From an uncultured Chloroflexia bacterium (GTDB taxonomy: Bacteria > Chloroflexota > Limnocylindria > Limnocylindrales > CSP1-4): a stretch of 64,000 nucleotides of DNA. Position numbers and translations under genes: made by a program. The stretch is from the NCBI GenBank assembly GCA_963749705.1, contig CAVVNQ010000003.1, positions 512,001 through 576,000 on the forward strand, given 5' to 3'. The notes under the pieces were generated by a model. It made no database searches and was not told the DNA's origin. It saw only the letters and a program-made list of their open reading frames with translations. Below are positions 33,771 to 63,594 of this stretch, in pieces. Within the stretch, counting starts at the first letter, position 1; the number at the start of each line of letters is the position of its first letter.

Positions 33771-33806
33771 CCCCGCAGTATGGTCCGGCGCGGGTAGGAT
33801 GCCGGG

Positions 33807-36239: not shown

Positions 36240-36256
<17 letters not shown>
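34703..36256 (-). CDS. Decaheme c-type cytochrome with N-terminal signal/TM and C-terminal TM anchor
   Basis: 10 CxxCH motifs (CYDCH, CADCH, CASCH x3, CIDCH, CGKCH, CWTCH, CSTCH, CDTCH), a helical C-terminal region and a TM segment; overlaps the cytochrome b stop. Confidence 0.9.
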
Positions 36257-37331
<1,075 letters not shown>

Positions 37332-37332
37332 C

Positions 37333-37803
37333 TCAGGATTCCGTGAGGTAGATCTGGTCGCCCTCGACCGACACCGTCACGGGCGGCAGCGGGGCCGGCG
37401 GCGGACCCGACACGACGGCTCCCGTCGCCGGGTTGAAGTGCCCGTCGTGGCAGGGGCACTGGATGGCGCCGATCAGGTCGTTCCAGGCGACCACGCAACC
37501 GAGGTGGGTGCAGATGGCCGAATAGGCCTTCACGCCCTGATCGGTGTTGACCACGATCGCCGGCTTGCTGCCGACGGCGACGACCTTGCCGGCGCCGGGC
37601 GGGATGTCCGCCGTCGTGCCGACCAGGGTCTTGCCACCCCCGGCGGCCCGGCCGCTGCTCGACGGGACCAGGAAGCCGACGATGGGGGTGAGGATCATCG
37701 CCGCGGTGGACACCACGGTGAGCCCGCCAAGCCAGCGCAGGAACGCGCGTCGCGTCGGTCCGGCCGGCTTCGCCGGCGGCGCGCCGCTGGTCCCAGGCTC
37801 CAT
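37333..37803 (-). CDS. Rieske [2Fe-2S] subunit of the bc-type complex
   Basis: Tat motif TRRAFL, TM segment, CTHLGC, CPCH and GPPPAPL. Confidence 0.92.
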   Translation of the reverse strand: MEPGTSGAPPAKPAGPTRRAFLRWLGGLTVVSTAAMILTPIVGFLVPSSSGRAAGGGKTLVGTTADIPPGAGKVVAVGSKPAIVVNTDQGVKAYSAICTHLGCVVAWNDLIGAIQCPCHDGHFNPATGAVVSGPPPAPLPPVTVSVEGDQIYLTES

Positions 37804-38662: not shown

Positions 38663-40447
38663 TCAGCGCCGGGCCGTAAGTGGCCACGAGATGCCGTCCG
38701 GTGCGCCCAGCCCGGTCGCCGGCGCCGGTTGGAAGTACGGGGTCGTGACGGGCAGCACCGGTTCGCGATGGCACCGCGCGCAGTACACGGGCTGGTGGCA
38801 GTAGGCGCACGCGGTGTTGCCCTGGCGACGGATCACCGCCGCGTGGTTGGTCAGCATCTCGTCGTGGTCGACCGTGACCGCGCCCGTCGAGTGACAGTTC
38901 ACGCAGAAGTCACGCGCATGGCACTCGCCGCAGGTCGTGCCGCCCGGGTCGGTGCTCGTGGCCACGTTCTTGTGACTGAACACGTACAGCGGCTGGTCGT
39001 GCGTCGCCGGCGGCTCGCCGAGCGGCAGGCTCGCGATCGCGGGTCCGATCTGCGGGAAGGTGTGGCAGGTGTCGCAGGTGGACGGAATCGTCTTCGTGGT
39101 GACCCTTCCGTCGACGACGAGGAAGTGGCCGCCGTCGTGACATCGGAAGCAGCCCGGGAAGTCCATGTGGCCGAGGTTGTCCGGGTAGGTCCGCGCCGAC
39201 ACCTTCATCTCGGGCGTTGCGGTCAGCCGGTACAGCACCTTGATCTCGTCGACCGCCGCGTTGATCTGGGCGGCCTTGGTCTGGAACACCAGCGGGTACT
39301 GCTGCTGGTAGAAACCCTCGAGGCGGTCCGCTTCGGCGTCCGCCGACGCCAGGTTCGGGTACCCGGCCGACAGGATCCGCATCCCCTCGCGCTTGATATA
39401 CGGCAGCGTCGGGTCGATCGCGCCGGTCGACAGCTGGTAGTCGAGCCCGGTTCGCGGGTTGGGGATCGCGTGGCCGGCGCGGTTGTGGCAGTCGTAGCAG
39501 GTCATCGTCGTCAGCCGCTCGGCGGCCTTGATCGCATCGATGTCCGGCTGGACATCCTCGCTGACCTTGATCTTGTCCTGCGAGATGAACTCGTCGACGG
39601 TCCCGTCCTCGGTCGTCGCCGCGACGTAGTCGATCGTCGTCGCGCGCGGGTCCGCGCTCGCATAGGTGACGTTGCGCAGCACGTGCCAGTGAACGCTGCG
39701 GTCCACGTTGAACACGTCGCCGCCGCCGGGACGGATCAGGAGACCGACCAACTGGCGGGTGTTCGCCTCGTCCTCGGCGAACTGGGTCCGGGTCTTCAGC
39801 GAGGCAAGGGCCTCGCGGCTCACGGTGTGGCAGCCCGCGCAGGTGTCGGATGCTGCCGGCAGCTCGGAGTGGTCAGGGGGCGGGATCGGCTCCGGGAAGG
39901 TGCCCAGCACGACCTCGACCAGCTGCCGCGTGCCGTTCAGCTTGGCCTTGATCCAGCCGGCGATCCCCGGCTCGACATGGCATTCGGCGCAGGCCACGTC
40001 GCGGTGCGGGCCGGCCTCGTAGGCGGCCAGCTCCGGCTCCATCGCATGACAGCGACCACAGAAGTCGGCCGTCTCGGTCCAGTGGAGGAGCGACACCGCA
40101 GAGAAGGTTGCGACGCCACCCAGGCCGGCCAGCACGAGCAGGAGGGCGAACAGCCCGCCGCGCGAGCGCGGGAGCCGCAGCCGCCGGCCACGCAGGTAGA
40201 ACCGCGACCGGTGCTCCGGCGCAGGCGCCTCGGCTGACGGCGGCTCCGCGGACCCGGTGCTCTCGGCGGCGGTCGATGACTCGTCGTTGGTCGCTGCCAC
40301 ATCGGCGGTCGCCGCTGCCTCGTCGGCGGTCTGCGTCGCCGGCGCAGGTCCCTCGTGGACGGCCTCCCCTGCCGGCCCGTCGGCTGGTGCATCGCCGGTC
40401 GCGGACCGGTCCGCGCCGGCATCGGGCTGCTCCGGGAGGTCGCTCAT
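38663..40447 (-). CDS. NapC/NirT-domain 10-heme cytochrome c (ImcH-like)
   Basis: TM segment then TETADFCGRCH, H..VACAECHV.PG..G...AKLNG..QL (NapC), CYDCHNR.GH and YPDNLGH..FPGCFRCHDG; 10 CxxCH in total. Confidence 0.88.
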   Translation of the reverse strand: MSDLPEQPDAGADRSATGDAPADGPAGEAVHEGPAPATQTADEAAATADVAATNDESSTAAESTGSAEPPSAEAPAPEHRSRFYLRGRRLRLPRSRGGLFALLLVLAGLGGVATFSAVSLLHWTETADFCGRCHAMEPELAAYEAGPHRDVACAECHVEPGIAGWIKAKLNGTRQLVEVVLGTFPEPIPPPDHSELPAASDTCAGCHTVSREALASLKTRTQFAEDEANTRQLVGLLIRPGGGDVFNVDRSVHWHVLRNVTYASADPRATTIDYVAATTEDGTVDEFISQDKIKVSEDVQPDIDAIKAAERLTTMTCYDCHNRAGHAIPNPRTGLDYQLSTGAIDPTLPYIKREGMRILSAGYPNLASADAEADRLEGFYQQQYPLVFQTKAAQINAAVDEIKVLYRLTATPEMKVSARTYPDNLGHMDFPGCFRCHDGGHFLVVDGRVTTKTIPSTCDTCHTFPQIGPAIASLPLGEPPATHDQPLYVFSHKNVATSTDPGGTTCGECHARDFCVNCHSTGAVTVDHDEMLTNHAAVIRRQGNTACAYCHQPVYCARCHREPVLPVTTPYFQPAPATGLGAPDGISWPLTARR

Positions 40448-40454
40448 CGGGATG

Positions 40455-41051
40455 TCAGTTCAGGATTGCCGCGATGGCGCGGTCCATGTCGTCCGGGTGC
40501 ATCGCCCCGATCCGGATCTCGCGGATCCGGCCGTCCGCCCCGATGAAGAAATGGGTCGGGATGCCCATCGTGCGGTACGTGCCGGCGATGACGGTGTTCT
40601 GGTCCACCGCGATCGGGAACGTCAGGCCGGCGCGCTCGGCATAGCCCTGAACGTCGCCGGCAGGCTCGCTGATGAACACGCCCAGCACCACGAGCCCCTG
40701 CGCCTGGTACTTCTCGTAGGCCGCCTCGACGTCGGGCGCCTCCGACCGGCAATCGGGGCACCACGACGCGCCGAAGGTGAGCCACACCGGCTTACCGGCG
40801 TAGTCGGACAGCGAGACCTTCGTGCCGTCGTAGGTCATGCCGGTGAAGTCGGGCGGCTGGGCGCCGATGGCGGGGCCGGCTGCCGCCGCGTTGCCGCCAA
40901 GGTCGACCTGGGTGACCCCGTCGTTACCGGTTCCACCCATGACGAACGCGATCGCGGCGATGATCACGGCCGTCATCCCGATCACGACGACGGTCTGCAA
41001 CCGTCCCGGAACGCGCCCGGCCGGCCGGGCCGTGAGGCCTGCTGCGCTCAT
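40455..41051 (-). CDS. resA: Membrane-anchored thiol-disulfide oxidoreductase (ResA/TlpA)
   Basis: TM segment, PDFT, ASWCPDCRSE and GIPT. Confidence 0.85.
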   Translation of the reverse strand: MSAAGLTARPAGRVPGRLQTVVVIGMTAVIIAAIAFVMGGTGNDGVTQVDLGGNAAAAGPAIGAQPPDFTGMTYDGTKVSLSDYAGKPVWLTFGASWCPDCRSEAPDVEAAYEKYQAQGLVVLGVFISEPAGDVQGYAERAGLTFPIAVDQNTVIAGTYRTMGIPTHFFIGADGRIREIRIGAMHPDDMDRAIAAILN

Positions 41052-41079
41052 CTCGCTCGATCCCTTCTCTCGGCCCGGA

Positions 41080-41964
41080 TCAGCCGAGGCCGGAGTAGCT
41101 GTGGAGCCCGCCGAAGAACAGGTTCCCGAAGTAGGTGAACAGCGTGGCCGCGAAGCCGAGCACGAGCAGCCATGCCGCGCGATTGCCCCGCCAGCCGCGC
41201 ATCACGCGGGCGTGGAGGTAGGCGCCGTAGATCAGCCACGTGACGAGGGAGGCGGTCTCCTTGGGATCCCAGCTCCAGTAGGTGCCCCATGCCGTGTCCG
41301 CCCAGACCGCGCCCAGGATGATCGTCAACGTCAGGAACGGGAACCCGACGACGACCGCGCGATATCCGATCTCGTCCAGCACCTGCGGCTTGGGCAGGCC
41401 CCAGCGGCCACCCTCGGGCTGGATCAGGTAGAGCAGCGAGGCCGCGAACGCGATCGAGAAGCTGCCGTAGGCGACGATGGCGACGGCGACGTGGACGGTG
41501 AGCAGGAGGTTGTTCTGGAGGGCCGGGACGAGGGGCTCGATCTCGGCCGGGATCGTCGCCGCGTAGCCCATCATCGCGAGCGCGACGGGGAGCGCGACCA
41601 GCGCCAGGATGCGCTGGTGGTAGCGGCGCTCGAACCACATGTAGGCGGCGAGGATCCCGAACGCGAACGCCATCGAGAACTCGTACATGTTGGCGAACGG
41701 CCCGTGGCCGGTGGCAACGGTCCGGAACGCCATGCTCGCGAGGAGCGCGACGACCGCAAGCCAGCCGAGGATCGTGGCGTAGCGCCCGATCGCGGCCGTC
41801 CGTGGCCCGGAGATGAAGCCCATCGCGCCGCCCGGGACCGTCATGCCGGCGGTCTGCAGGCGGGCGGCCCGGAGGCCGGACACCGCGTAGAGCAGGTAGG
41901 CGAGCGTCGCGAGCCCCGTGCTCAGCATCGCCGCCACGAAGGCGTATTCGGACATCTTGGCCAT
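41080..41964 (-). CDS. resC: Cytochrome c biogenesis system II heme-handling protein (CcsB/ResC)
   Basis: HGPFANMYEF, LVPALQ, WWD domain WGTYWSWDPKET, YLH and GLHSY. Confidence 0.93.
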   Translation of the reverse strand: MAKMSEYAFVAAMLSTGLATLAYLLYAVSGLRAARLQTAGMTVPGGAMGFISGPRTAAIGRYATILGWLAVVALLASMAFRTVATGHGPFANMYEFSMAFAFGILAAYMWFERRYHQRILALVALPVALAMMGYAATIPAEIEPLVPALQNNLLLTVHVAVAIVAYGSFSIAFAASLLYLIQPEGGRWGLPKPQVLDEIGYRAVVVGFPFLTLTIILGAVWADTAWGTYWSWDPKETASLVTWLIYGAYLHARVMRGWRGNRAAWLLVLGFAATLFTYFGNLFFGGLHSYSGLG

Positions 41965-41977
41965 GGCCAGGTCTCCC

Positions 41978-43444
41978 TCAGCTTCGCGCCGGCGCCTGGA
42001 GCGCCTGGCGGACGGTAGTGACAAGGGTTTCGAACTCGGTTGCCAGGGTTGCCTCCCGGTTGCCCAGGCTTGCCAGCCCCAGCACGGCCCCGCCATTGGG
42101 GCGGGCCGTGATCCTGGCCCACACGCGCTTGTGCGGGATGGTGAAGCGGATCACGAAGCCGACGAACAGCAGCAGCGCCCCCAGCCACACGAGGGTCACG
42201 CCCGGATCGCGGGCCACGCTCAGGCCGGTGAACTGGCTCTCCCGATCGAAGGTGACGGTGAGCCCGCCCACGGTTCCGGCGCTGCCCTGGTCGAGCACGA
42301 CCGTGTCGACCTCGGTGCCCGTCTCGGCGGTGTACAGGTCCAGCTCCATCTGGCCGGGCTTGACCTTCGGATCGCCGTTGCCGAGGGTGCCGATCACCCA
42401 GCCGACATACTGCGTGCCGGGGATGCTGAACGAGCCGATCGGCCGGTCGTCCGCGGTCGTCCGCCAGGCAAGCGGCACGCCCTCGGACACGAGCGTGTTG
42501 CCCTTGTCGTCCTTGACGGTCATCACCGCGGCGGACCCGAAGAATGCCTGGTAGAAGGTCGTGTCGCCGTACCGCAGCGGGTCGTTGACGCGGATGGTGT
42601 GCCGCGCGACCTCGGTCCCGTCCTTGTACAGGACGACATCGCTCGCGTAGTCCTCCGGGGCCCCGGTTGCGACGTAGTACGTATCCGTGAAGTCGAGCAG
42701 CTGGATGCTCAGCCCGTCTTCGGCCGCGACCGGGAGGGTCGCGCCCTCGGCGATGGTGAACCCGCTGTCCCGGTAGCCGAAGGTCGAGCCGACGATGGCG
42801 CCGGCGAGGATCACGACCAGCGACAGGTGGCCGATGAGCCCGGCGAACGGCGCCCAGCGGAACCGGTCCGCGTACAGGTGGATGGTGCCGTCGTCGGCGA
42901 CGATCGTCCGGTAGTGCTTGTTCCTCAGCAGGCCCTGGACGATCGCGAGCGTCTCGGCGGGGCCGTGGCGGACGACGATCACCTCGTGCTCCGGCGCGTG
43001 CTCGAAGAACCCGGGTCCGACGTCGACGCGCGGCTTGATGGCGGTGCGGATCATGCCCGGAATCCGGTGCACGGAGCAGGCGACGAGGCTGATCGTGAGC
43101 GCCGCGACGGTGAGCCGGAAGATGACCGAGTTGAAGATCTGGAACAGCTGGAGGCTGTCCATCAGGCCGGTCAGACCGCCGAATCGGGGCCGGATCTCGT
43201 TGAGCCAGTCCGCCTTCGCGGCCGGGTCGGTGAGGACGCCCGGAGGGGCCTGGATCACCAGCGACCCGATGACGCCGAGAACGGCCAGGACCAGGATCAG
43301 GACCATCGCCACGCGCATCGACGTCAGGAAGTGCCATAGTCCTTCCAGCCCCGCGTCGACGCGGTCCATGATGGTCGGACCCGCCGCCCCGCCAGCCGGG
43401 ACGGCTGCGGGAGGAAGGGGCCGGGAACGCACCTCGTGTGCCAT
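41978..43444 (-). CDS. resB: Cytochrome c biogenesis protein ResB
   Basis: LTSMRVAM.L, GSLVIQ, H in IGHLSL, YASDV, IRVNDPL, YQA and DPG; GGAGG RBS. Confidence 0.9.
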   Translation of the reverse strand: MAHEVRSRPLPPAAVPAGGAAGPTIMDRVDAGLEGLWHFLTSMRVAMVLILVLAVLGVIGSLVIQAPPGVLTDPAAKADWLNEIRPRFGGLTGLMDSLQLFQIFNSVIFRLTVAALTISLVACSVHRIPGMIRTAIKPRVDVGPGFFEHAPEHEVIVVRHGPAETLAIVQGLLRNKHYRTIVADDGTIHLYADRFRWAPFAGLIGHLSLVVILAGAIVGSTFGYRDSGFTIAEGATLPVAAEDGLSIQLLDFTDTYYVATGAPEDYASDVVLYKDGTEVARHTIRVNDPLRYGDTTFYQAFFGSAAVMTVKDDKGNTLVSEGVPLAWRTTADDRPIGSFSIPGTQYVGWVIGTLGNGDPKVKPGQMELDLYTAETGTEVDTVVLDQGSAGTVGGLTVTFDRESQFTGLSVARDPGVTLVWLGALLLFVGFVIRFTIPHKRVWARITARPNGGAVLGLASLGNREATLATEFETLVTTVRQALQAPARS

Positions 43445-43458
43445 GACCGACGACCTCC

Positions 43459-43551
43459 TCAGGCGCCGGAGGGCGACGCGAGGGTCGCCGGCCGGCTGGG
43501 ATTGGTGTTGGGATCGCGAGCGCCGATGGCCACGAGCAGCGGGCCGATCAT
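43459..43551 (-). CDS. 30-aa small ORF or gene remnant between the TPR gene and resB
   Basis: The ATG overlaps the TPR stop (ATGA) and the stop abuts the resB RBS; MIGPLLVAIGARDPNTNPSRPATLASPSGA. Confidence 0.4.
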   Translation of the reverse strand: MIGPLLVAIGARDPNTNPSRPATLASPSGA

Positions 43552-44714
43552 GGCTGCGTGCTCGGTGCCGCGGAGGCCGCCGGCGAGGCGTCGTCGGCTG
43601 CGCTCGGTGATGGCGCCGCGCTGGCCGCCGCTGAGGCGGCCGGCAGCATCGACGATGCGGCAAGCGAGTCCAGGTGCTGCTGGACGGTATCGGCGAGCTG
43701 GGAGCCGGGATCCAGCTCGACCACGAGGCCCCATTCCCGCTGGACCCCGGCCCAATCGGGCGTGGCCTGGTTGAGGAACAGGAACCCGAGGTCGTAGTGG
43801 GCCTCGACGTTCTTGGGATCGATCGTGACAACCTGGTCCCAGGCGTCCTGCGCGGCCGGGAGGTCGCCCAGGTTGAAGCTTGCTGCGCCGCGCGCAAGCA
43901 AGGCCCCGACGTTCTTCGGATCGAGCGCGAGCAGCTTGTCCAGCCATGTGCCCGCGCTGGCGTAGTCCTCGCCCGCGTAGAACTCGTCCGCGAGCGCGAG
44001 CATCGTTGCCGTGTCGGTCGGGTCTGCCTGGATCTTCTCCATCAGCGCCGCCACCTTGGCCTGGTCGACCACCGGTGCGGATGCGGCGGCCGAGTCCGGG
44101 CTCGCGGTGCCGGCACCCGGGTTGACCCCTGCGCCGTTCAGGTTGTAGCCGATGAACAGGAGCCCGGCCGCGGCCGCGATGCCAACCGCGCCGAGGACCA
44201 GCTTCTTCCAGATCCCGCCCGCGGCTGCTGGCGGCGCGACGGTCGCGACAGCCGCGCCGGACCGCACCTGCGCCGGACGGGCCTTGCGCTTGCGATCGGG
44301 GCCCATGTCCGAGTGGGCGCTGGGCGTCACCGAGGCGTACAGGGCCTCGAAGTCGTCGTCGGCGTCGCTCGTTTCGTCGTCGACGTCTGGCACCGCCTCG
44401 GGAAGGGGGTCCCGGCGGGCCGGAGGTGTCGCCGGCCCGCCGGGTTCGACCCGCGGCGGCCTCGTCGGGCTCCTGAGGGCTGAGCCCCCGAAGCCGACTG
44501 GGTCGGTCAAATGGAGGTACGCGGCGTCGAGCGCCGCGGACTGCGAGTGGGCCCAGCCGCGGACGGCGGACGGGGCGGATGCGAGGTAGTCGCTCACCGC
44601 CTGGTGAACGCGGTCGACGTCTTCGGGGGACGCGCTCGGCGGCAGGCCGAGCTCCGCGAGCAGCTCGTTCTCGGCGGCTGCTCGGCCGGTGGCGGGCAGG
44701 CCCGGGGCGCTCAT
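43548..44714 (-). CDS. Membrane-anchored TPR protein (CcmI/CycH-like maturation chaperone candidate)
   Basis: Central TM segment; C-terminal TPR repeats (LALDPKNVGA, TIDPKNVEAHYDLG, ELDPGS). Confidence 0.75.
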   Translation of the reverse strand: MSAPGLPATGRAAAENELLAELGLPPSASPEDVDRVHQAVSDYLASAPSAVRGWAHSQSAALDAAYLHLTDPVGFGGSALRSPTRPPRVEPGGPATPPARRDPLPEAVPDVDDETSDADDDFEALYASVTPSAHSDMGPDRKRKARPAQVRSGAAVATVAPPAAAGGIWKKLVLGAVGIAAAAGLLFIGYNLNGAGVNPGAGTASPDSAAASAPVVDQAKVAALMEKIQADPTDTATMLALADEFYAGEDYASAGTWLDKLLALDPKNVGALLARGAASFNLGDLPAAQDAWDQVVTIDPKNVEAHYDLGFLFLNQATPDWAGVQREWGLVVELDPGSQLADTVQQHLDSLAASSMLPAASAAASAAPSPSAADDASPAASAAPSTQP

Positions 44715-44735
44715 GCCTGGCCACCCGTGAGACGC

Positions 44736-44753
44736 GCGCAACGATCGTTGCGC
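44736..44753. promoter_or_regulatory. Perfect 18-bp palindrome upstream of the TPR-resB-resC-resA-imcH operon
   Basis: GCGCAACGATCGTTGCGC, about 20 bp before the ATG at 44714. Confidence 0.45.
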
Positions 44754-44947
44754 AGTAGCTGCCGGATCATCGTGAATGCCCTCATTGCGCGCCGCGGGGG
44801 ACCGCGGCCTGACACCTGTGTGAATTGTCCGGGTCAGGCCCCTGCCAGCCCATCCACCGGGCCGCACATTTCGACCGGGACCCGGGAGGGCTATTGGGTG
44901 GAGAGATCAGGCCGGGCCTGTACCCGTCGATACATCCGGAGGCCGGG

Positions 44948-45970
44948 TCACGGGGCGGGGACGGTCGCCCCGTCGTGACCTACGCCGTGGCAGGTCAGGG
45001 TGCATGTCCCGGTCGTCGCGTCGTAGCTGATCGGCAGGCCGCCGTAGGCGACCACGTCCGGCGCGAACTTCACCAGGCCGCGGGTGTCGTCGCTCGTGCC
45101 GTGCAGGTTGTAGTGGCACTCGGCACACAGGGCGTTTCCCTGGCCGTCGCCCGGCACGGTGATATCGGTGCCGGCGCTGCCGGAGCTGTAGCCGTCGATG
45201 CTCCGGAGGTGGAAGCCGTGGCCCGGGAAGTTGGTGCCGGTCGATGTCCCGGTGGTGTCCTCGATCGCGGTCTCCTGGGCGCCCGAGTGGCACGAGAAGC
45301 ACAGGCTGAAGTCGGCCGCCCGGTAGGCCTCGCCGGTGGATCGCAGCGGGCTGGTCCGGTAGGCGCTTGGGAGCAACGAGGAGTCGGACGCGCTGTGCGA
45401 GGCATGGCAGGCTGCGCACGTATCGCTCGTGAGCCCGCTGATCACGTGCGGCGACGTGGGATCCACGTTGATATCCAGATCGGCGAACGGGGCGACCAGG
45501 CGGACCTCCGGCGAGGGCGAGACCTCCGGCGAGGGCGAGACCTCCGGCGAGGGCGACGGACCGAGGGAAGGATCCGGGGATCCCGTTGGCACCTCGCTGG
45601 GCGGGACGTCAACGCTTGCGCTGGGGGTCGGGGACGCGCCCGGTGTGGCGGATGCGGACGGGTCCACCGACGGTGACGGCGCAGCGCTTGGCGAGGGTTC
45701 CGCGGACGGGCTGGGGGATTCGGACGCCGGTGGGGGCGAGCCGGGCGTCGGTGACGCCGAGGGCGTGGGCGACGCCGACGGCGTCGGGGTGGCGGCGGGC
45801 GCCGATGCCGAGGGCGTGGGGGTGGCGGCGGGCGCCGATGCCGAGGGATCCGGCGACGGGTCGGTGGCGGAGACGGCCGGCACCGCCGGCGCAAACGTGG
45901 CCAGCACGGCGGCGGCCACCAGCCACGCTCCGAAGAGCGGGCCGGCGCGGCGAGTGAGCCCTGCGTTCAT
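44948..45970 (-). CDS. Secreted tetraheme cytochrome c with a long Pro/Ser/Thr stalk
   Basis: Signal peptide, about 115-aa PS/PT low-complexity region, CAACH, CFSCH, CAECH and atypical CTLTCH. Confidence 0.85.
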   Translation of the reverse strand: MNAGLTRRAGPLFGAWLVAAAVLATFAPAVPAVSATDPSPDPSASAPAATPTPSASAPAATPTPSASPTPSASPTPGSPPPASESPSPSAEPSPSAAPSPSVDPSASATPGASPTPSASVDVPPSEVPTGSPDPSLGPSPSPEVSPSPEVSPSPEVRLVAPFADLDINVDPTSPHVISGLTSDTCAACHASHSASDSSLLPSAYRTSPLRSTGEAYRAADFSLCFSCHSGAQETAIEDTTGTSTGTNFPGHGFHLRSIDGYSSGSAGTDITVPGDGQGNALCAECHYNLHGTSDDTRGLVKFAPDVVAYGGLPISYDATTGTCTLTCHGVGHDGATVPAP

Positions 45971-46194: not shown

Positions 46195-47535
46195 CTAGTT
46201 GCCCGGGGTGGGCAGCGGGCCGAGGTAGGTGCCGTCCGCCAGAGTCCCCGTCGGGTCGTGGCAGAGCTGGCAGGTGCCGCGGTTGTCCGCCTTGAGCAGG
46301 CGGCTGTCACCGGAGGTGGCAACACTGCCGTTCGGGCCGACGTTGGTGGGCTTGGGCGGGACCGCATGGTTCGGGTCCACGTAGTTGAGGGAGTTGGTGC
46401 CCGTCATGAGGGCGTTGGAGCCATGGGACACATGGCACTGCTCGCACCCGACGCGGGTCGTCCCGTGCTTGTACATGAATGTGGAGTCCGCGCTGTTCGC
46501 GACGAGCGAGGACACCTGATTGCCACCCGGCGTGTAGTCGCTGACGCCGCCGGTCACGGTCGTGCTATAGCCGTTGTAGCGCGTGTGGCACTGGATGCAC
46601 CACGCGGTCATGAGGCCGGTGGTGTTGGCCGGGGCCACGCCGCCGTTGGCGGCCGCGTTCGTGGCGGTGACGCCGTTCCAGGCGGTGTTCATGGGGTCTT
46701 TCGGCGGGAGAGGCGTCAGGTACCAGAGGTCTGCGCCGGTGGGATCCCAGTGGTAGCGCCAGTAGTCACCGGTGTCGGTGGTCACGATATTCGCCGCGGA
46801 GCCATTGGCATCGGTGCCGTCGGTGGCCGGCTTGATCGTGTAGTTGTGGGTCCCGGTCGTGGTCGTGTCAACAATCTCGACCGCGCTCGTCGACAGGACG
46901 AACTGGGCTGCGGGCGAAGGAGCCGTCGCAACAGCGCTGGGCTTCGTCTGCAGAATTCGGTACTGGCCATTGCCGTGCGGGTTGTGGCACGAGGCGCACT
47001 CGAGGGTAACCGTGGCACCGGTGCCGCTGTTGACGGCTCCGTTGCCCCAGACCGTGCCAGTGCCCCAGCCGGCGTTGTAGATGCCACCCGTGCCGCCGTG
47101 GGTCGAGGTGACCTTCTGCGCGGTGGCCAGCGGCTGGATGTGGCTGTTGTAGCTGTGCGAGGCCTCGTCGATGAGGACCTTTGCCGCGTTGCTCGAATCG
47201 ATCAGCGCGTACTGGAACCCGCCGCCCCGGAGGGCGCCGAGGACGGGAGCGGTCTTGGCCGTCGCTGAGTACTGGACGCCGTCAATGACGTCCGTGGTGG
47301 CCTTGCTGCCGTCGTGGCAGTTCAGGCACAGCTCCGGCTGGTCGTTGTTGAGCAGACCCGCGGCGGTCGCCGTGTGGGCCCGATGGCATCCCGCGCACGA
47401 ATCGGCGGTCAGCCCGGCGGTCCCGTTGTTGGTGGCCATCTGATGGGGGCCACCGTCGGCGAACGCTGGAATCGCGGCAACGAACAGCCAGAGGATACCT
47501 ATCGCACCGAGAAGTGCGAACTTCCTCACTGTCAT
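46195..47535 (-). CDS. Secreted hexaheme cytochrome c, OmcS-like
   Basis: Sec signal ending AFA|D; six CxxCH (CAGCH, CLNCH, CASCH, CIQCH, CEQCH, CQLCH); strong RBS AAGGAGGT; Asn/Thr/Gly-rich. Confidence 0.88.
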   Translation of the reverse strand: MTVRKFALLGAIGILWLFVAAIPAFADGGPHQMATNNGTAGLTADSCAGCHRAHTATAAGLLNNDQPELCLNCHDGSKATTDVIDGVQYSATAKTAPVLGALRGGGFQYALIDSSNAAKVLIDEASHSYNSHIQPLATAQKVTSTHGGTGGIYNAGWGTGTVWGNGAVNSGTGATVTLECASCHNPHGNGQYRILQTKPSAVATAPSPAAQFVLSTSAVEIVDTTTTGTHNYTIKPATDGTDANGSAANIVTTDTGDYWRYHWDPTGADLWYLTPLPPKDPMNTAWNGVTATNAAANGGVAPANTTGLMTAWCIQCHTRYNGYSTTVTGGVSDYTPGGNQVSSLVANSADSTFMYKHGTTRVGCEQCHVSHGSNALMTGTNSLNYVDPNHAVPPKPTNVGPNGSVATSGDSRLLKADNRGTCQLCHDPTGTLADGTYLGPLPTPGN

Positions 47536-47620
47536 TACCTCCTTTGTGGACTGGATGAGCACTGCCTGCGCTGCAGGCGACGTTGTCGTCCTGACCTCCA
47601 CCTCCGTCTCCCTGCACATG

Positions 47621-48676
47621 TCAGTAACTCCACACCTGGAGCCGGTCGTTGCCCCAGTCCGCGACGTACACGCGCCCCCGGGCATCGATGGCGAGCCCGT
47701 TCGGGTAAGAGAACGCGCCGTCGCCGGCGCCCTTCTGTCCGAACGTGTTCACGTAGCCGGGGCCGCGATCGCCGGATGTCATGGGTGCGTAGGCCTGGAT
47801 GGTCGATGCACTCGAGTCCACGACCAGGATCCGGCCGTGGTCGTCGATCCCGATCCCAACTGGAAGGCCCAGGTTGCCGACCGCGTCCCCGCGCTCCACG
47901 ATGCCAACCTGGGCACCGGATGCGTCGAAGACGAGCAGCCGCCCGTTGGCGGTGTCGGTGACGTACACGGTGCCGTTCGCGTCCACCGCGATGCCGTTGG
48001 GGTGGTTCATCCCTGCGCCCGCGCCGAAGTCCCGGACCAGCTTGCCGTCCGAACCGAACACGTGGATCACCACGGGGTCGGCGCTCACGTCGGCGATGTA
48101 GACGTTGCCGGCCTGGTCGAAACCGATCCCCAGGGGCTGCCAGTTCGCGAGCCCCGCGCCCTGGTCGAAGATCCGGAGGTACGTGCCATCCGCGGCGTAG
48201 ACCACGACCGCGCCGTTGAACCGGTCGGTTGCCCAGAAATCGCCGGTCGCCGGGTCGGTGGCCACGAATAGCTGATGGGCCTGCACGATCAGGTCGGCCG
48301 GGGGCTTGAGGACCGCGAGCTGCCCACCCTGGCGGTCCATCATCACCGTGTCCAGGGAGGTGCCTGTCTGGGTTACCACGATCCGCGTGCCGTCAGCGCT
48401 CACGGCGACCGCCTGCGGCTTGCTCAGATCGTAGAAGGATCCTTGGTACGCCGGCATCGGCGGCTCGACGAAGGGAACCGGGATGTTGGTGATCGGCTGG
48501 CGGAACAGGAGGTACCAGATCGACAGGGACCCCATGATCGCGAGCAGGGCGAGGAGGAACAGGAGCAGGAACTTCTTGCGTCGGTTGTCCTCGCGCTCCT
48601 CGACCGGTGCTTCCGGCGGGGTCGAAGGCTGGGCATCACCGGAGAGCGCTCCAAGCGACAGGTCGGGTGTGGTCAT
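47621..48676 (-). CDS. Membrane-anchored NHL-repeat six-bladed beta-propeller protein
   Basis: N-terminal TM segment; repeats of P.GI.VD..G.VYV.D..N.R..VF. Confidence 0.88.
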   Translation of the reverse strand: MTTPDLSLGALSGDAQPSTPPEAPVEEREDNRRKKFLLLFLLALLAIMGSLSIWYLLFRQPITNIPVPFVEPPMPAYQGSFYDLSKPQAVAVSADGTRIVVTQTGTSLDTVMMDRQGGQLAVLKPPADLIVQAHQLFVATDPATGDFWATDRFNGAVVVYAADGTYLRIFDQGAGLANWQPLGIGFDQAGNVYIADVSADPVVIHVFGSDGKLVRDFGAGAGMNHPNGIAVDANGTVYVTDTANGRLLVFDASGAQVGIVERGDAVGNLGLPVGIGIDDHGRILVVDSSASTIQAYAPMTSGDRGPGYVNTFGQKGAGDGAFSYPNGLAIDARGRVYVADWGNDRLQVWSY

Positions 48677-48677
48677 C

Positions 48678-49661
48678 TCAGTTGTTGCCTCCGGCAGTGG
48701 GGGACGCGACCTCGGAGGGTGCTGCCACGTCGCCCGCGCCGAGGCTGCTGAGGCCGATCTGCGCGGACTGGTTCGTGGGGTCGATCGCGAGCACCTGGCG
48801 GTAGTAGGACGTCGCCGCGGTGTTGTCGCCGCTCTGGGACGCGATGAGCGCGAGACCGATGAGCGCGTCGGTCTTCATGGCGCCCGTCGTGAGCGGCTTG
48901 AGCGCCGCCGTCGCCTCATCGGGGCGGCCCTGGCAGAAGGCGACCATGGCACTTGCCCATGCGACGCCATCCGGCTGTTGGAGGGCCGTGTAGGAGACGG
49001 CGAGCTCCTGGTACGGCTCGAACCAGCCGGTCGGCACGAAGGCGACGGAGAGCCTGAGCGCACTGACCGCCTTCGTCGGGTCACCTGTCTTGTTGAGGGC
49101 CTGGCCAAGCAGGTACAGGGCGTCTGCATCGGCTCCGTTGATGGCGACTGCCTTCTCGAGCGTGGTCGCCGCGTCGGCGGCCAGGCCTTGCTGCAGCTGG
49201 ACGAGGCCGAGCTCGTAATAGGCATGCTCGAGCTGCGGGTCCGAGCTTGCGAACTCGCCCGCTGCGGCTTGGTCGATGAACGCGTTGAGGTCAGTGGCGG
49301 CCGCGTCAGGCTGGCCGATCTCAACGTAGGCGATCGCCCTGCCGAGCAGCGCGGGTCGATCCGCCGGGTCGATCTTGAGCGCCTCGGTGAACTGGGTGAT
49401 CCCGTCGTCATAGCGCTTGGCGCTCACGTAGGCGGCGGCGAGATAGTCGCGTGCCTGGAGATCGTTGGGGTTTGCCTGGACGGCGGCCTCCGCCGCCGCG
49501 ACCGTGCGATCCGAAACGGACCCACCGGTGTCGACATGCCGGTCGCTCCAGTAGACGAACACCATCACGGGGACCCCGATCAGCAGGATCAGCGCCGCGA
49601 TCAGGATCAGCCGGTTGAGGGTTCTGGTGGAGATGGTCGTGGGACGTGCGACTCTCATCAT
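48678..49661 (-). CDS. Membrane-anchored TPR protein
   Basis: N-terminal TM segment; multiple TPRs (ALKIDP, AYYELG, ALYLLG, VLAIDPTN); AAGGA RBS. Confidence 0.85.
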   Translation of the reverse strand: MMRVARPTTISTRTLNRLILIAALILLIGVPVMVFVYWSDRHVDTGGSVSDRTVAAAEAAVQANPNDLQARDYLAAAYVSAKRYDDGITQFTEALKIDPADRPALLGRAIAYVEIGQPDAAATDLNAFIDQAAAGEFASSDPQLEHAYYELGLVQLQQGLAADAATTLEKAVAINGADADALYLLGQALNKTGDPTKAVSALRLSVAFVPTGWFEPYQELAVSYTALQQPDGVAWASAMVAFCQGRPDEATAALKPLTTGAMKTDALIGLALIASQSGDNTAATSYYRQVLAIDPTNQSAQIGLSSLGAGDVAAPSEVASPTAGGNN

Positions 49662-49921
49662 TGCTGCCATTCCTTGCGGTGGACGCGCGGCCGGACACCC
49701 GGCCATCAAAGGACGCCGAGGCCTGAGCCCGGCTCCCCGTCCATGTTCGGGCGCGCGAGGGCGAGTTCCCATCCGTCGGGGGATAGAACTGCGATACAGG
49801 GCGTGGTGCGCACGCAACGGTGGTCGTGTATCGAGTGGCCCCCGAAGGTCCCAAGGACCCGGGCCGGATGTCCCGTCCCGTCAGACGCGGGGCGCGCCCG
49901 GCCTCCAGGATGGAGGGCCGG

Positions 49922-50452
49922 TCAGAGGCTCTCGCGCGGCGTCCGGAAGCTCGATGGCACGTCCACCTCGATCACGTCGCCCACCAGCCTGAGCGGGAAC
50001 CGGTCCAGGGGGCGCGGCGGCGGACCCGATACGACCTTGCCGTCGATGTCGAACACGCCATCGTGGCAGGCACACTTGAACTCGTGATCGGCGTCAGCCC
50101 AGCGGTAGATGCACAGCGCGTGCGTGCAGCGCGGGTCGAACGCGGTGATGTCGCCGCCGGCGCGCCTGACGAGCCAGGCGGACGCGGCCACCGCCTGGCC
50201 GCCGGTGTCGAGCGTGAACGGGACCTCGGTCGGCACCCCCACCTCGAGCGACGCGGGATCGACGTCCAGGGTCACCGTGATCGGGGGACCGGCGCAGGCC
50301 TCGAGCAGGACGCCGAGGCCGCCGCCCGCGGCGATCGCACCGGCGCCCATCAGGAGCAGCACCCGACGGCGGGGAACGGGCGTCGTCAGCGGATCGATGG
50401 GGCGGCGCCCGGCGTTGCCCGGCAGCGTCGGGATGTGGCGCTGATCTCCCAT
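49922..50452 (-). CDS. Second Rieske [2Fe-2S] protein with Tat signal
   Basis: PRRRVLL, CTHALC, CACHDGVF and GPPPRPL. Confidence 0.88.
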   Translation of the reverse strand: MGDQRHIPTLPGNAGRRPIDPLTTPVPRRRVLLLMGAGAIAAGGGLGVLLEACAGPPITVTLDVDPASLEVGVPTEVPFTLDTGGQAVAASAWLVRRAGGDITAFDPRCTHALCIYRWADADHEFKCACHDGVFDIDGKVVSGPPPRPLDRFPLRLVGDVIEVDVPSSFRTPRESL

Positions 50453-51050: not shown

Positions 51051-51761
51051 TCAGCCGAGCCGCGGGTCCTGGTCGCGCTTCGGCTCGCTGCCCGCGAACC
51101 CCCGACGGACCGCATAGGCCGCCGCCTGGACGCGGTTGGTCAGGTGCAGCTTCTCGAGCGCGTTGTGCACGTGGTTCTTGACCGTCCCCTCGGTGATCGT
51201 GAGCTGGTTCGCGATCTCCTTGTTGGACAGCCCGTCGGCGACCAGCTCCAGGATCTCCGACTCGCGCCGGGTGAGCACGCTGTCCTGCGCTGCCGGCGAC
51301 GGCTGGCCGCGGACGGGGATGCCGCCGGTCCGGAGCGCCGTGAGCAGCTTGGTGGCGACCGCGGGTGCGATCGGGGCCTCGCCGCGCATCACGCCGCGGA
51401 GATCCTCGAACAGCTGCTCGGGGCGGACGTTCTTGAGCAGGTAGCCGTTGGCCCCGGCCTTGATCGACTCGAACAGGTCGTCATCGTCCTCGGACACCGT
51501 GAGCATCACGATCGGCGTCGAGATCCCGGCCTGGCGGATCGCGTTGACGCCGTCGACACCCGAGGCACCCGGCATGTTCACGTCCATGACCACCAGGTCG
51601 GGGCGCAGGGCGCGGACCTTGTCCAGCGCGTCGCGGCCGTTCTCCCCCTCGCCCACGACGGTCATGTCGAACTGGGCGCTGATCAGCGTCGCGAGCGCTC
51701 TCCGGAACAGCGGCTGGTCATCGACGAGCAGCACCCTGAGACGCGGCGGAGTGTGTTCCAC
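51051..51761 (-). CDS. NarL/LuxR-family response regulator
   Basis: LLVDDQ, VVMDVNMP, GYLLK and LTRRE.EIL...GLSNKEIA...TVKNHV. Confidence 0.93.
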   Translation of the reverse strand: MEHTPPRLRVLLVDDQPLFRRALATLISAQFDMTVVGEGENGRDALDKVRALRPDLVVMDVNMPGASGVDGVNAIRQAGISTPIVMLTVSEDDDDLFESIKAGANGYLLKNVRPEQLFEDLRGVMRGEAPIAPAVATKLLTALRTGGIPVRGQPSPAAQDSVLTRRESEILELVADGLSNKEIANQLTITEGTVKNHVHNALEKLHLTNRVQAAAYAVRRGFAGSEPKRDQDPRLG

Positions 51762-53523
51762 GGGAGCTCTCTGCTTCGAGGTGGACGATGATCCTGGTCC
51801 CCTGCTTCGGGGCAGTATGCACAACAAGGGTGCCACCGATCTGTTCCACCCGCTCCCGCATGGACGCGAGCCCGAAGCCGCCGTCCATGGACCCGGCCAC
51901 GGTGCCCAGGTCGAAGCCGACGCCGTCGTCCTCGATCGTAAGCGTGGTCGCCGCGGTGGCGCACTCCATCCGGACCTGGACGTGGGTCGCCCGCGAGTGC
52001 TTGCGGGTGTTGGTCAGCGCCTCCTGCACGACGCGCAGCAGCTGGACCTCGCTGCGAGGCGTCAGCGAGGCGCGGGTGTCGCCATCGCAGGTGAGGGTGG
52101 CCGCGATCCCGGTCTGCCGGCTGTACTTGCGCAGGTACTCCCGCAGGGAGCCCTCGAGCCCCGTCTCCTCGCGAACGGTCTCGCGCAGCCCCAGGATCGC
52201 CTCGCGCACGTCCTGGTAGGCCTCGTCGGCGGTGTCGGCGATCTGCGACAGCTCGGCGGCCATGGTGTAGCTCGCCTCATCCTTGGCCCGGCCCTCGAGC
52301 GCGCGCAGCTGCAGGTGGATCACGCCCAGCACCTGGGCCAGGCTGTCGTGCAGCTCGCGTGCGATCCGGTCACGCTCGGCATGGATCGTCCACTGCTCCT
52401 CGGCTTCGTGGAGACGGGCCGTCCGAACGGCGATGGTCGCCATGTCGGCCAGTGCGCCCAGCAGCGTCCGCTCGGCCTCGTTGAACGCCTGCCCCGCGCG
52501 GACCACGCACAGCTCGCCCAGGATCCCGTCAGGCCCGCGCAGCGGTCGCGCCGCCCACGTCCGGTTCGCGTCGACCGCGAGCAGCGGGCACTCGGGGTTG
52601 CGCGGGTGGATGGCGCCCGTCGCGCGGTGGACGATCAGGCAGACGCTGCCGTCGTCCGCGATCGCCATGCGCCCCTGGCCGCCGGAAGACCCCGCACGGG
52701 TGGTGTCGGTGAGGCATACGACGGCGCGATCCGCACCCAGCAGCTCCCGCGCATGACCGGAGATCGCGTCGAGGACGTCGTGCAGGTCAGCCCGGCGAGT
52801 GAGCTGGAGCGCGACCTCGTACAGCGCGGCGCGCTCCCGTTCCCGGCGATGCAGATCCGCGACCGTGAGTGCGAGCTGCGCGGCGCCCGCGATCTCGCCC
52901 GTGATGTCGGCGAGCGCGGCGGGCGAGATGTCGGGATCGACCGCCGGATGGATCACGACGCGCAGGTGTCCGATCCGGTCGCGTCCCCGGATCAGCGGCA
53001 GGTCCAGGACGCCGGTGTCGAGCTCCGCCCGGCGCGTGAACGAGGGCGTGTCCTGCTCCGGGTCTGCCGGCGCATCGAGCAGCGGGGCGAGCCAGCTGAG
53101 GCCCGTCGCAAGCGGGTCCGGCCGGCGGATCGTCAACGGGTCGCCGCCCGGGGTCAGGATCGAGACCGTGCCGGCGATGGCGCCGGTCTGCGTGATGAGC
53201 CGGTCGAGCGCCTGCCCGAGCAGGTTCGGCAGGGCGAGGCCGCCCCGGACGGCGGAGCTCACCGCGTGGGTGACGGTGAGGTCCTTGTTCCGGGCCAGCA
53301 GCTGCTTCTGGGTGCGGTCGAGGTAGATCGAGACGAAGGTCGCAAAGATGACGATCGCGCCGCCCATGATCATCGCGGACAGCACGTGGGCGTCGTCGCC
53401 GGTGACCGTGCGATCGAGGAACAGGAACCGGACCACCTCGAAGGCCCAGACGAACACGACGGGCACGATCATCGTCGCCCACTTGAGGCGGTTGAGATCG
53501 CGTGCGCCCTGGGGTTCGCTCAT
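51718..53523 (-). CDS. Membrane sensor histidine kinase with two GAF-like domains (HisKA_3)
   Basis: Two TM segments, ERDRIARELHDSLAQ, QEALTN..KH, EDDGVGF and GFGLASMRER. Confidence 0.92.
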   Translation of the reverse strand: MSEPQGARDLNRLKWATMIVPVVFVWAFEVVRFLFLDRTVTGDDAHVLSAMIMGGAIVIFATFVSIYLDRTQKQLLARNKDLTVTHAVSSAVRGGLALPNLLGQALDRLITQTGAIAGTVSILTPGGDPLTIRRPDPLATGLSWLAPLLDAPADPEQDTPSFTRRAELDTGVLDLPLIRGRDRIGHLRVVIHPAVDPDISPAALADITGEIAGAAQLALTVADLHRRERERAALYEVALQLTRRADLHDVLDAISGHARELLGADRAVVCLTDTTRAGSSGGQGRMAIADDGSVCLIVHRATGAIHPRNPECPLLAVDANRTWAARPLRGPDGILGELCVVRAGQAFNEAERTLLGALADMATIAVRTARLHEAEEQWTIHAERDRIARELHDSLAQVLGVIHLQLRALEGRAKDEASYTMAAELSQIADTADEAYQDVREAILGLRETVREETGLEGSLREYLRKYSRQTGIAATLTCDGDTRASLTPRSEVQLLRVVQEALTNTRKHSRATHVQVRMECATAATTLTIEDDGVGFDLGTVAGSMDGGFGLASMRERVEQIGGTLVVHTAPKQGTRIIVHLEAESSRGTHSAASQGAARR

Positions 53524-53640
53524 GGGTCCGACTGTGCCGTTCGATACATGCGGTGGCGAAGGGCCGTCCGGCCCGTGCATGGAGGGACCCATCGGCACCC
53601 AACCGCGTGACCCGGACCGGGCCGGCCGCGGCGGTGCGCG

Positions 53641-54732
53641 CTACGCGGGTCCGGCGTCCTCCGCCGGCGCCGCCTCGCCCGCCGCTTGCGCCGTGCTCGG
53701 CCAGCCCTCCGCGTCACCCCTGGGGCGGACCTGGACGAACTCGAACCCGAACCGGCCCTTGACGCACAGGTGCCCGCTGGTGACCGACGACTCGAGCGGG
53801 GAGGTCACCTTGACGATCGAGTTGTCCTGGACGTGGAGCGAGAGCGTGCACCCGACGCCGCAGTACGGGCAGATCGTGTCGGTCGTGGTCTGGGCGGTCT
53901 CGTCCCAGGTTCCCGCCTGCCGCATCTCGTGCTCCGACCGGAACATGAGTGCGCCGGTCGGGCAGACGCCGATGCAGTTGCCGCAGTACACGCATGCGGA
54001 CTCGGGAAGCGGAACGTCGAACTCGGTCGAGATCCGGGCATCGAACCCGCGGCCCGCGACCGAGATCGCGAACGTGTTCTGGGCATCCTCGCCGCACGCC
54101 TCGACGCACTTGTAGCAAAGGATGCAGCGGGCGTAGTCGCGGACGTACAGGTCGTTGTCGACCTTGACCGGCTGGGCGACGGTCTCGGCCGCGGGTGCGT
54201 CCCCGGCGGGAGCGTGGTGGTGTCCCGGGGCCCGGGCGTCGCGCTCTCCGGCGGCCGCGGGTGCCGCGGCCGGGCCGAACCGCTCGGGGTGCGCCCCGTA
54301 CCGGCGGGCGTAGCGGGCGAGGTCGCCATCGGGTGCCTCGGGTCCGGCCAGCGAGAGGTCGACCGAGGAGCCGAGCAGCTCCAGGACCATCCGGCGCGCT
54401 TCGCGGACGCGCTCGCTGTCGGTCTGGACCTCCATCCCCGGCTCGACCTTGCGCGAGCACGCCGGGACGAGGACGCGCGAGCCGGCGACCTCCACCACGC
54501 ACACCCGGCAGACGTTGACCGGCGCGAGCGTCTCCAGGTAGCACAGCGTCGGCGTGTCGATGCCCACCGACCGGGCGGCCTCGAGGATCGTGGAGCCGGC
54601 CGGGACGGTCACGCCGGCGCCGTCGATCGACAGCTCGACGGCCGGAACGTCGGGTGCCGGCGGTGGCTCGGGCGGCCGCGAGGGACGCGCCGGCGGCTCG
54701 AAGAAGATGCGGGCGACGTCGTCGACGCTCAT
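53641..54732 (-). CDS. Fe-S subunit of formate dehydrogenase (NuoG/FdhA N-terminal part)
   Basis: 2Fe-2S ligands (TLC...CRVC...PAC), two 4Fe-4S motifs (CILCYKCVEAC, CVYCGNCIGVCP), and the molybdopterin-enzyme Fe4S4 motif CPYCGVGC...LCVKGRFG. Confidence 0.9.
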   Translation of the reverse strand: MSVDDVARIFFEPPARPSRPPEPPPAPDVPAVELSIDGAGVTVPAGSTILEAARSVGIDTPTLCYLETLAPVNVCRVCVVEVAGSRVLVPACSRKVEPGMEVQTDSERVREARRMVLELLGSSVDLSLAGPEAPDGDLARYARRYGAHPERFGPAAAPAAAGERDARAPGHHHAPAGDAPAAETVAQPVKVDNDLYVRDYARCILCYKCVEACGEDAQNTFAISVAGRGFDARISTEFDVPLPESACVYCGNCIGVCPTGALMFRSEHEMRQAGTWDETAQTTTDTICPYCGVGCTLSLHVQDNSIVKVTSPLESSVTSGHLCVKGRFGFEFVQVRPRGDAEGWPSTAQAAGEAAPAEDAGPA

Positions 54733-56684: not shown

Positions 56685-56799
56685 GGTTCCCGAGTGTAGT
56701 GCGGTCGGTCGTGTCCCGGATTCCCGCCGCGCGGCGGAGCGCGGCCGAATGCGCCGCGGTGTGGCCGGCCGGATCGGCTGCCGCAACACGGTCCCGCGT

Positions 56800-63506: not shown

Positions 63507-63594
63507 TGGCGTGACCTCGGGTAGGGAGTCCGATGCGCCGAGTGTAGATCCGACGGCAATGGCGGTGCGTCAGCGGGCCTCGGCGGAGCGCGGG

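Follow-up and report, generated by a model that had tools for sequence, protein, structure and literature searches.

A conserved hexaheme cytochrome module of uncultured Chloroflexota and its possible kinship to the OmcS nanowire subunit

Does an uncultured Chloroflexota bacterium build heme nanowires similar to those of Geobacter? This question was raised by a sequence-only reading of a hexaheme c-type cytochrome gene, which is located at 46195..47535 on the minus strand of a 64,000-nucleotide (nt) stretch of genome assembly GCA_963749705.1 (contig CAVVNQ010000003.1, positions 512,001 to 576,000; this whole stretch is hereafter the window). That reading took the product for a nanowire subunit with the motif order of OmcS. 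The analysis described below indicates that the hexaheme protein belongs to a conserved gene set, and we consider it reasonably likely to be the outermost cytochrome of a conserved extracellular electron-transfer (EET) module. Its kinship to Geobacter OmcS is probable but very remote. The stronger proposal, that it is an OmcS-type nanowire subunit of Candidatus Limnocylindria-like Chloroflexota built by a dedicated 13-gene module, is put forward tentatively.

The hexaheme protein and its family

The hexaheme protein carries six CxxCH motifs, which account for all of its 12 cysteines, and is devoid of CxxCK or any other variant heme motif. The strings quoted in the sequence-only reading (CHRAH, CLNCH, GGF, LECASCHNPHG, YRIL, MTAWCIQCH, CEQCHVSHGS, and RGTCQLCH) are all present. 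Four alignments were used for the analysis of conservation and for the profile searches: A1 with 35 relatives, A2 with 114 relatives of higher diversity, A3 with 37 members and A4 with 114 members of a compact subfamily described below, A4 having no sequence in common with A2 or A3. Twelve histidines, consisting of the six proximal ones and H31, H54, H146, H187, H357, and H371, are invariant in A1, and these 12 are invariant or at least 90% conserved in A2. Since the motifs and the 12 histidines are invariant in the 35 relatives, and since exactly six CxxCH were found in 224 of the 267 relatives whose sequences were taken, the motifs are not a product of chance. With six conserved histidines in addition to the six proximal ones, it is possible that all six hemes are bis-His ligated. 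The features of the gene, all on the minus strand, are as follows.

46195..47535, minus strand: hexaheme c-type cytochrome gene, 446 amino acids (aa) from the ATG; PF09699, E 5.5e-21
47537..47544, minus strand: Shine-Dalgarno sequence AAGGAGGT, spaced by 1 nt from the ATG and by 7 nt from an alternative GTG
47458..47535, minus strand: part coding for the signal peptide, residues 1-26, cleavage between AFA and DGGPH, by inspection
47383..47397, minus strand: heme motif 1, CAGCH (C47-H51), followed by H54; invariant in A1 and A2
47314..47328, minus strand: heme motif 2, CLNCH (C70-H74); conserved in A1 and A2
46984..46998, minus strand: heme motif 3, CASCH (C180-H184), followed by NPHGNGQYRIL; aligned with CSSCHDPHG of OmcS
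46585..46599, minus strand: heme motif 4, CIQCH (C313-H317), preceded by MTAW; aligned with MSEWCANCH of OmcS
46432..46446, minus strand: heme motif 5, CEQCH (C364-H368), followed by VSHGS; aligned with CLSCHRAHAS of OmcS
46258..46272, minus strand: heme motif 6, CQLCH (C422-H426)
46195-46197, minus strand: stop codon
46142..46178, minus strand: GC-rich hairpin, 16 nt past the stop codon, without U-tract

The G+C content at third codon positions (GC3) of this frame is 0.86, as in real genes of this window with 72% G+C. A GTG codon at 47529-47527, two codons past the ATG, would give a protein of 444 aa. As this GTG lies at a 7-nt spacing from the Shine-Dalgarno sequence, and as several relatives begin at the equivalent position (MRK... 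or VRK...), it appears to be the likelier start. Thus the near-perfect Shine-Dalgarno sequence claimed for the gene is real (AAGGAGGT), but its spacing to the ATG is merely 1 nt. The predicted signal peptide was recognized by eye from MTVRK, a hydrophobic run and the junction between AFA and DGGPH, and the AlphaFold2 (AF2) model forms a helix at residues 3-20 in agreement with the prediction; past the signal peptide, the protein contains no further hydrophobic segment. The downstream stem-loop exists as the hairpin at 46178-46142, and the 141-nt region containing it folds with -66.8 kcal/mol (z -2.55; 3 of 200 shuffles fold as well), but a U-tract is missing and no site downstream of the hexaheme gene was called in the terminator scan. 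The description as Asn/Thr-rich holds loosely, for the mature protein of 420 aa consists of 13.6% Thr and 7.4% Asn, yet also of 12.1% Gly and 11.7% Ala. The notion of an abundant structural protein had the Shine-Dalgarno site and this composition as its sole basis and is not further supported here.

The protein belongs to the paired-CXXCH cytochromes as judged from PF09699 (Paired_CXXCH_1; 74.4 bits against a cut-off of 20.6, in four stretches) and TIGR01905 (doubled-CXXCH; 63.8 bits against 25.2, E 1e-17). This generic domain was all that the curated libraries (Pfam and NCBIfam) returned, every named equivalog model staying far under its cut-off. The decaheme models of DmsE/MtrA type, TIGR03508 and NF041028, gave 49.7 against 192.2 and 48.0 against 325 bits, for a protein of six hemes. 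Sub-threshold NCBIfam matches to NrfH (30.3 against 134.2 bits) and QrcA (24.2 against 180) could be taken to indicate a catalytic multiheme enzyme such as a nitrite, hydroxylamine, sulfite or tetrathionate reductase or oxidase. We regard this as highly improbable: both matches lie far under the cut-offs and reflect the heme motifs only, a CxxCK or variant motif is lacking, the six conserved distal histidines leave no open heme site, and no solved enzyme was matched either in the sequence searches of the PDB or by Foldseek. The enzyme assignment (NrfA/NrfH, HAO and similar) was rejected on account of the six distal histidines and the lack of any family-level match.

Of 7997 candidates scored, at least 2148 were relatives at E <= 0.001; 945 cluster representatives also passed this threshold, 134 of them at E <= 1e-30. 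In the protein atlas, PF09699 cytochromes make up all of the nearest clusters, which serve as leads only; Chloroflexota, Actinomycetota, Bacillota, and Thermodesulfobacteriota are among the phyla represented. Besides the long subfamily that includes the protein of the window, there is a compact sister subfamily of 312-416 aa, sharing the same heme core and stopping right after heme 6 at '...CHNK/CHNV'; the conserved C-terminal tail Y-x-G-P-x-P-T-P-G of the long subfamily is absent from it. The compact subfamily comprises at least 1784 sequences, and six CxxCH are present in every one of the 114 members newly taken (P0269-P0382). Its few named members come from metagenome-assembled genomes of Actinobacteria or Actinomycetes and bear the name 'cytochrome c3 family protein'. 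A search of the protein collection with the compact-subfamily profile returned same-family members, with no OmcS-named protein among the 120 matches listed.

When genome contigs were scanned, a relative was encoded in 196 stretches, of which 72 distinct loci were kept. By record title, these belong to Candidatus Limnocylindrales/Limnocylindria (11 loci), other uncultured Chloroflexi/Chloroflexota/Chloroflexia (58), Anaerolineaceae (2), and Actinomycetota (1), and the hexaheme protein is 38-80% identical across them, the closest being that of locus L012 (80%). The accessible part of a preprint on Chloroflexi names this lineage RIF-CHLX/Ellin6529/Limnocylindria, with genomes from vents, freshwater, groundwater, permafrost, and soil, and its section on multiheme cytochromes, in that same part, treats Anaerolinea only.

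A second region resembling part of the hexaheme gene was noted in 17 of the 72 loci (for instance L023 6969-7631 and L061 6360-6983). It measures about 600-660 nt in 12 loci and 850-1280 nt in five, is located upstream in all 17 except L016 and L017, and accompanies in most of these loci a longer main hexaheme gene of 1.6-1.9 kb. Separately, a tandem paralog with six CxxCH follows directly 3' of the hexaheme gene in L030 (9341-10660), L027 (9322-10584), L053, L048, and L066; this arrangement resembles the omcS/omcT tandem of Geobacter.

Comparison with OmcS in sequence and structure

OmcS (Geobacter sulfurreducens GSU2504; PDB 6EF8/6NEF) is a hexaheme nanowire subunit. Both proteins carry six CxxCH, and the sizes are similar, 420 aa for the mature protein here and 407 for the OmcS chain. 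Profile A2 detected OmcS (6ef8_A) in the PDB at E 0.001 with 21.3 bits, in a collinear match over heme motifs 1-5 including their flanks. Profile A3 detected it at E 0.00058 with 22.2 bits over heme motifs 3-5, and profile A4 at E 0.012 with 17.9 bits over heme motifs 3-4. In the A2 alignment, the OmcS partners are CEGCHTMH, CLNCH, LHCSSCHDPHG-KYR, MSEWCANCHT, and NCLSCHRAHAS, in that order, so that the two proteins have in common the succession CxxCHxxH, CLNCH, CxSCHxPHG..YR, (M)xxWCxxCHT, and CxxCHxxHxS. The OmcS motif order proposed from the sequence was thus borne out for hemes 1-5, the terminal CxxCH falling outside the alignments. A YRIL string straight after heme 3, also attributed to OmcS, is not found there: OmcS has just YR at this point, and YRIL follows about 45 residues later.

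For the comparison of structures, a heme-free monomer model was built by AF2 with a 114-sequence alignment (mean pLDDT 83.4, pTM 0.85); a model built with the 35-sequence alignment A1 (pLDDT 37, pTM 0.19) was set aside. The model is 64% coil, and OmcS is likewise mostly coil. Foldseek placed 6ef8_A first among 350,542 chains, with 406 columns aligned of 407 residues and about 15% identity. OmcS is the lone solved structure that matches the hexaheme protein along most of its length. Profile searches and Foldseek, which are independent of each other, both single it out, neither being significant alone, and the heme-free model does not superpose on it. As a full-length match, OmcS argues for the strict nanowire model, in which subunits polymerise head to tail and each binds a heme of the following one through H54 or H31 of its N-terminal arm, so that the heme chain is continuous. 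We consider this model possible while leaning against it.

Several observations weigh against the link to OmcS. By both the single-sequence search (phmmer) and profile A1, OmcS was left unmatched in the PDB at E <= 10, and the best E-values obtained for it with the other profiles are near the threshold. The strongest PDB match of every profile was the paired-CXXCH protein 6r2q_A (8.6e-8 to 3.7e-6 for A2-A4, 0.0016 for A1), and OmcE (7tfs_A) was also matched above OmcS by A2-A4 at E 2.2e-5 to 0.0018; OmcS ranks third for these profiles, after these two paired-CXXCH module matches. Reaction-centre cytochromes gave long two-motif alignments at E 0.04-0.7 with profile A2 in the PDB and mark the background level among multiheme proteins. 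In the structural comparison, the first rank and the 406 columns do not make the Foldseek match with OmcS significant (E 0.1, probability 0.09), and the superposition on 6ef8_A is at random level (TM 0.19/0.21, root-mean-square deviation 19.5), despite the confidence of this heme-free model. By these measures, the heme-free AF2 model does not show the fold of 6EF8.

The two higher-ranking matches are short. That to decaheme 6r2q_A is local, covering about 40 residues, and the number of hemes differs. We take 6r2q_A to be an MtrA-containing decaheme complex; among the window proteins, no gene for a porin partner is present in the cluster, which is a further difference. In the chain table searched, 6r2q_A is labelled 'Cystathionine beta-synthase', yet the aligned segments are repeated CxxCH modules, and the label looks misassigned. 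OmcE (7TFS) and the OmcE-like 9yuq_N (E 0.0068-0.049) are tetraheme nanowire subunits of 218-232 aa, and only about 36-43 of their residues, matching the C-terminal paired-CXXCH module, are aligned. OmcS itself differs from the protein described here in several respects. The spacing between hemes 1 and 2 is 15 residues shorter here and other spacings differ too, hemes 2 and 3 are separated by a beta-rich insert in the family described here, which also has the conserved C-terminal tail, and the host of OmcS belongs to Desulfuromonadia, whereas the host here belongs to Chloroflexota. Taken over the profiles, the link to OmcS appears weak but repeatable, and borderline. As the fold of 6EF8 was not reproduced by the model, the protein should be described as a generic paired-CXXCH hexaheme with a remote and unproven kinship to OmcS, and not as a demonstrated member of the OmcS family.

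An OmcS homolog with six CxxCH, 28% identical to OmcS, is described for a Coriobacteriales (Actinobacteria) genome, i.e. in a Gram-positive lineage, in the accessible part of PMC7399161. Compared by this description, it differs in that BLASTP with OmcS detected it and would not detect the hexaheme protein here; actinobacterial names also occur in the compact subfamily.

The sequence-only reading had matched H54, three residues after the first CxxCH, with the histidine that OmcS donates across the subunit interface as a heme ligand. Position 16 of OmcS is a histidine in the aligned CxxCHxxH, pairing with H54, and we take His16 to be the donated ligand. The accessible part of PMC9473688 states for both OmcS and OmcE that a heme is ligated by a histidine from the adjacent subunit, which is in favour of the strict nanowire model. 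Against it, gap-free alignments (23.0 and 19.8 bits) pair the heme-1/2 module, the histidine at +3 included, with two modules of 6r2q_A, a decaheme-like spacing, whereas OmcS has insertions of 14 residues and 1 residue in this module (1.6 bits). Because CxxCHxxH is a generic signature of the PF09699 module, H54 is no evidence for inter-subunit ligation. The count of 12 conserved histidines, another of the points against polymerisation, would be accounted for equally well by a closed monomer and by a swapped polymer.

The mature N-terminus (residues 27-60) is nearly invariant, yet model confidence is lowest here (pLDDT 49-57). Packing of this segment against another chain or heme would fit, as a weak hint toward contacts beyond the single chain and in favour of the strict nanowire model. 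Prediction of a complex of two copies of residues 27-446 with A2 scored 0.38, 0.59, and 0.00 (mark 0.42), with 0.00 in all three controls; this result was used neither way.

The same histidines would suffice for ligation in cis within a closed, non-polymerising surface cytochrome, which would serve the same EET role while docked on the stalked tetraheme cytochrome and/or the NHL propeller encoded nearby. Such a protein agrees with the canonical nature of the paired-CXXCH modules, with the confident and compact AF2 monomer (pTM 0.85) and with the tail Y-x-G-P-x-P-T-P-G, which is found in the long subfamily alone, as a docking peptide might be. The OmcS likeness, and the NHL parallel described below, would then be coincidental or would reflect common ancestry without a common mode of assembly, and we judge the docked form rather unlikely. 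Cell-wall cytochrome relays have been proposed for Gram-positive metal reducers such as Thermincola, and offer an analogue of this docking arrangement.

The gene neighbourhood and the proposed electron path

What kind of module does the hexaheme gene belong to? It forms part of a minus-strand cluster, which runs from 53640 in the order GAF/HisKA_3 kinase, LuxR-type regulator, 195-aa protein, Rieske protein, TPR1, NHL, and hexaheme, and continues with the stalked cytochrome, TPR2, ResB, CcsA, ResA-like thioredoxin, NapC/NirT-type cytochrome, PCYCGC protein, cytochrome b, and decaheme. The 195-aa protein between the regulator and the Rieske protein has no Pfam match.

51051..53640, minus strand: LuxR-type response regulator and GAF/HisKA_3 histidine kinase, cluster head; limits stop-to-stop
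49922..50452, minus strand: Rieske [2Fe-2S] protein with RRR-containing N-terminus; PF00355, E 5.2e-10
48678..49817, minus strand: TPR1, TPR protein with membrane helix; library match
47621..48676, minus strand: NHL-repeat beta-propeller with N-terminal membrane helix, directly upstream of the hexaheme gene; PF01436, E 6.1e-28
44948..45970, minus strand: stalked cytochrome with signal/anchor, Pro/Ser-rich linker of about 130 aa, three CxxCH and CTLTCH
43548..44867, minus strand: TPR2, second TPR protein with membrane helix; library match
41978-44041, minus strand: ResB, System II cytochrome c maturation; PF05140, 2.1e-70; limits stop-to-stop
41080-42150, minus strand: CcsA, System II; PF01578, 1.2e-47; limits stop-to-stop
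40455-41201, minus strand: thioredoxin-like ResA, System II; PF00578, 3.5e-26; limits stop-to-stop
38663..40459, minus strand: NapC/NirT-type membrane-anchored cytochrome with 10 CxxCH; PF03264, 1.8e-10
36240-37376, minus strand: cytochrome b; PF00033, 9.2e-51
34703-36262, minus strand: decaheme cytochrome with C-terminal membrane helix; PF14522, 9.2e-14

The neighbours were counted over the 72 loci, many of which have incomplete flanks. Homologs of NHL were found in 64 loci, of the stalked cytochrome in 63, of TPR2 in 63, and of TPR1 in 61, followed by the kinase (50), the regulator (50), CcsA (49), the Rieske protein (42), and ResB (40). Among loci with enough flank, an NHL homolog precedes the hexaheme gene on the same strand, at a distance of up to 3.5 kb, in 54 of 60, and the gene for the stalked cytochrome follows it in 50 of 59. 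This almost constant company of the stalked cytochrome and NHL is in accord with a closed cytochrome docked on either of them.

The NHL neighbour also bears on the strict nanowire model. In Geobacter, the NHL-repeat gene GSU2505 adjoins omcS (PMC9070056), and an NHL-repeat gene adjoins the hexaheme gene here, the likeness being at the level of the NHL repeat. The strict nanowire model is further favoured by a hexaheme that is secreted without an anchor, and by the tandem paralogs in some relatives. Self-polymerisation in the head-to-tail manner of OmcS nevertheless stays a conjecture to which we give less than even weight. Should the wire be formed, the 13-gene module might comprise the NHL propeller, two TPR proteins, the stalked cytochrome as the base, a heme-attachment system, and a two-component switch; this composition is proposed with equal reserve.

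Alternatively, the hexaheme protein may not participate in EET and may be a soluble carrier inside the envelope, passing electrons from Rieske/cytochrome b or a NapC/NirT-type dehydrogenase to a terminal oxidase or reductase. Multiheme cytochromes act as subunits of bc-type complexes in several phyla, and here a Rieske gene stands in the same gene string, with cytochrome b and the membrane decaheme about 9 kb downstream. These partners are not constant, however: within the flanks available, the hexaheme gene is accompanied by cytochrome b and its decaheme in 5 of the 72 loci and by the Rieske gene in 42, whereas NHL, the TPR proteins and the stalked cytochrome are near-constant. The Pro/Ser-rich stalk of 130 aa on the neighbouring cytochrome suggests a reach across the wall, and no terminal oxidase or reductase gene is present in the cluster. 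An internal carrier is accordingly improbable.

Some further features of the stalked cytochrome were observed. Its linker before the heme domain is rich in Pro/Ser/Ala/Thr, and CTLTCH is a CX3CH motif near the C-terminus. In loci with a tandem hexaheme (including L027, L030, L048, and L053), the stalked cytochrome is enlarged to 890-1176 aa with seven CxxCH. The C-terminus of the hexaheme protein reads ...PLPTPGN and that of the stalked-cytochrome homologs of L005, L007, and L008 reads ...PTPTPGI, which may be a shared motif; the stalked cytochrome of the window itself ends with ...ATVPAP.

To our knowledge, Chloroflexota are without an outer membrane, and the Limnocylindria-like ones have a Gram-positive-type envelope. 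We infer the location of the hexaheme protein, the direction of electron flow, its partners, and its oligomeric state from the genes and models described above. The protein would be exported by the Sec pathway, its six hemes possibly all being bis-His ligated and attached by the co-encoded System II proteins ResB, CcsA, and ResA. Electrons may flow from the quinol pool to the NapC/NirT-type decaheme (and/or Rieske protein and cytochrome b), then to the stalked tetraheme, the hexaheme, and an external acceptor; reverse flow from an external donor would be equally possible. Lacking a membrane anchor, the hexaheme protein must be retained at the cell surface by some other means; the NHL propeller, TPR1, and TPR2 are candidates for holding it there or for assisting its assembly.

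Other features of the window and meaning of the module

Apart from the cluster, an in-frame TGA at 63246-63248 on the minus strand divides a molybdopterin oxidoreductase (61563-63569, minus strand) into two open reading frames (ORFs) of the same frame, PF00384 being matched on both halves. Read as selenocysteine, the TGA gives ...SCNRT-U-HAPSV..., a context that we take to be typical of formate dehydrogenase selenocysteine sites. The window also contains FdhD (33798-34478, plus strand), a NuoE/NuoF-like fusion (54732-56981, minus strand), an Fe-S/Mo-Fe4S4 protein (53644-54978, minus strand), and an ORF at 24060-25451 on the plus strand with a DoxD-like membrane domain (PF04173) and a C-terminal Rieske domain (PF00355).

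The literature searched, which was incomplete and without supplements, contained no description of this Chloroflexota hexaheme family or its cluster. What appears to be new here is the Chloroflexota hexaheme family together with its conserved accessory gene set, an actinobacterial OmcS homolog having already been reported in the part of PMC7399161 referred to above. If the hexaheme protein does not polymerise, the cluster is still a conserved EET-type module so far undescribed, and the family would be a useful test of what divides wire-forming from non-wire hexahemes. Polymerisation, if it occurs, would bring long-range electron transfer to an uncultured Chloroflexota lineage of wide distribution, and would place heme wires far beyond Desulfuromonadia and archaea, in which they have been solved. 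The conserved neighbours would then be concrete candidates for the assembly machinery, including a possible role for the unexplained NHL gene beside omcS.

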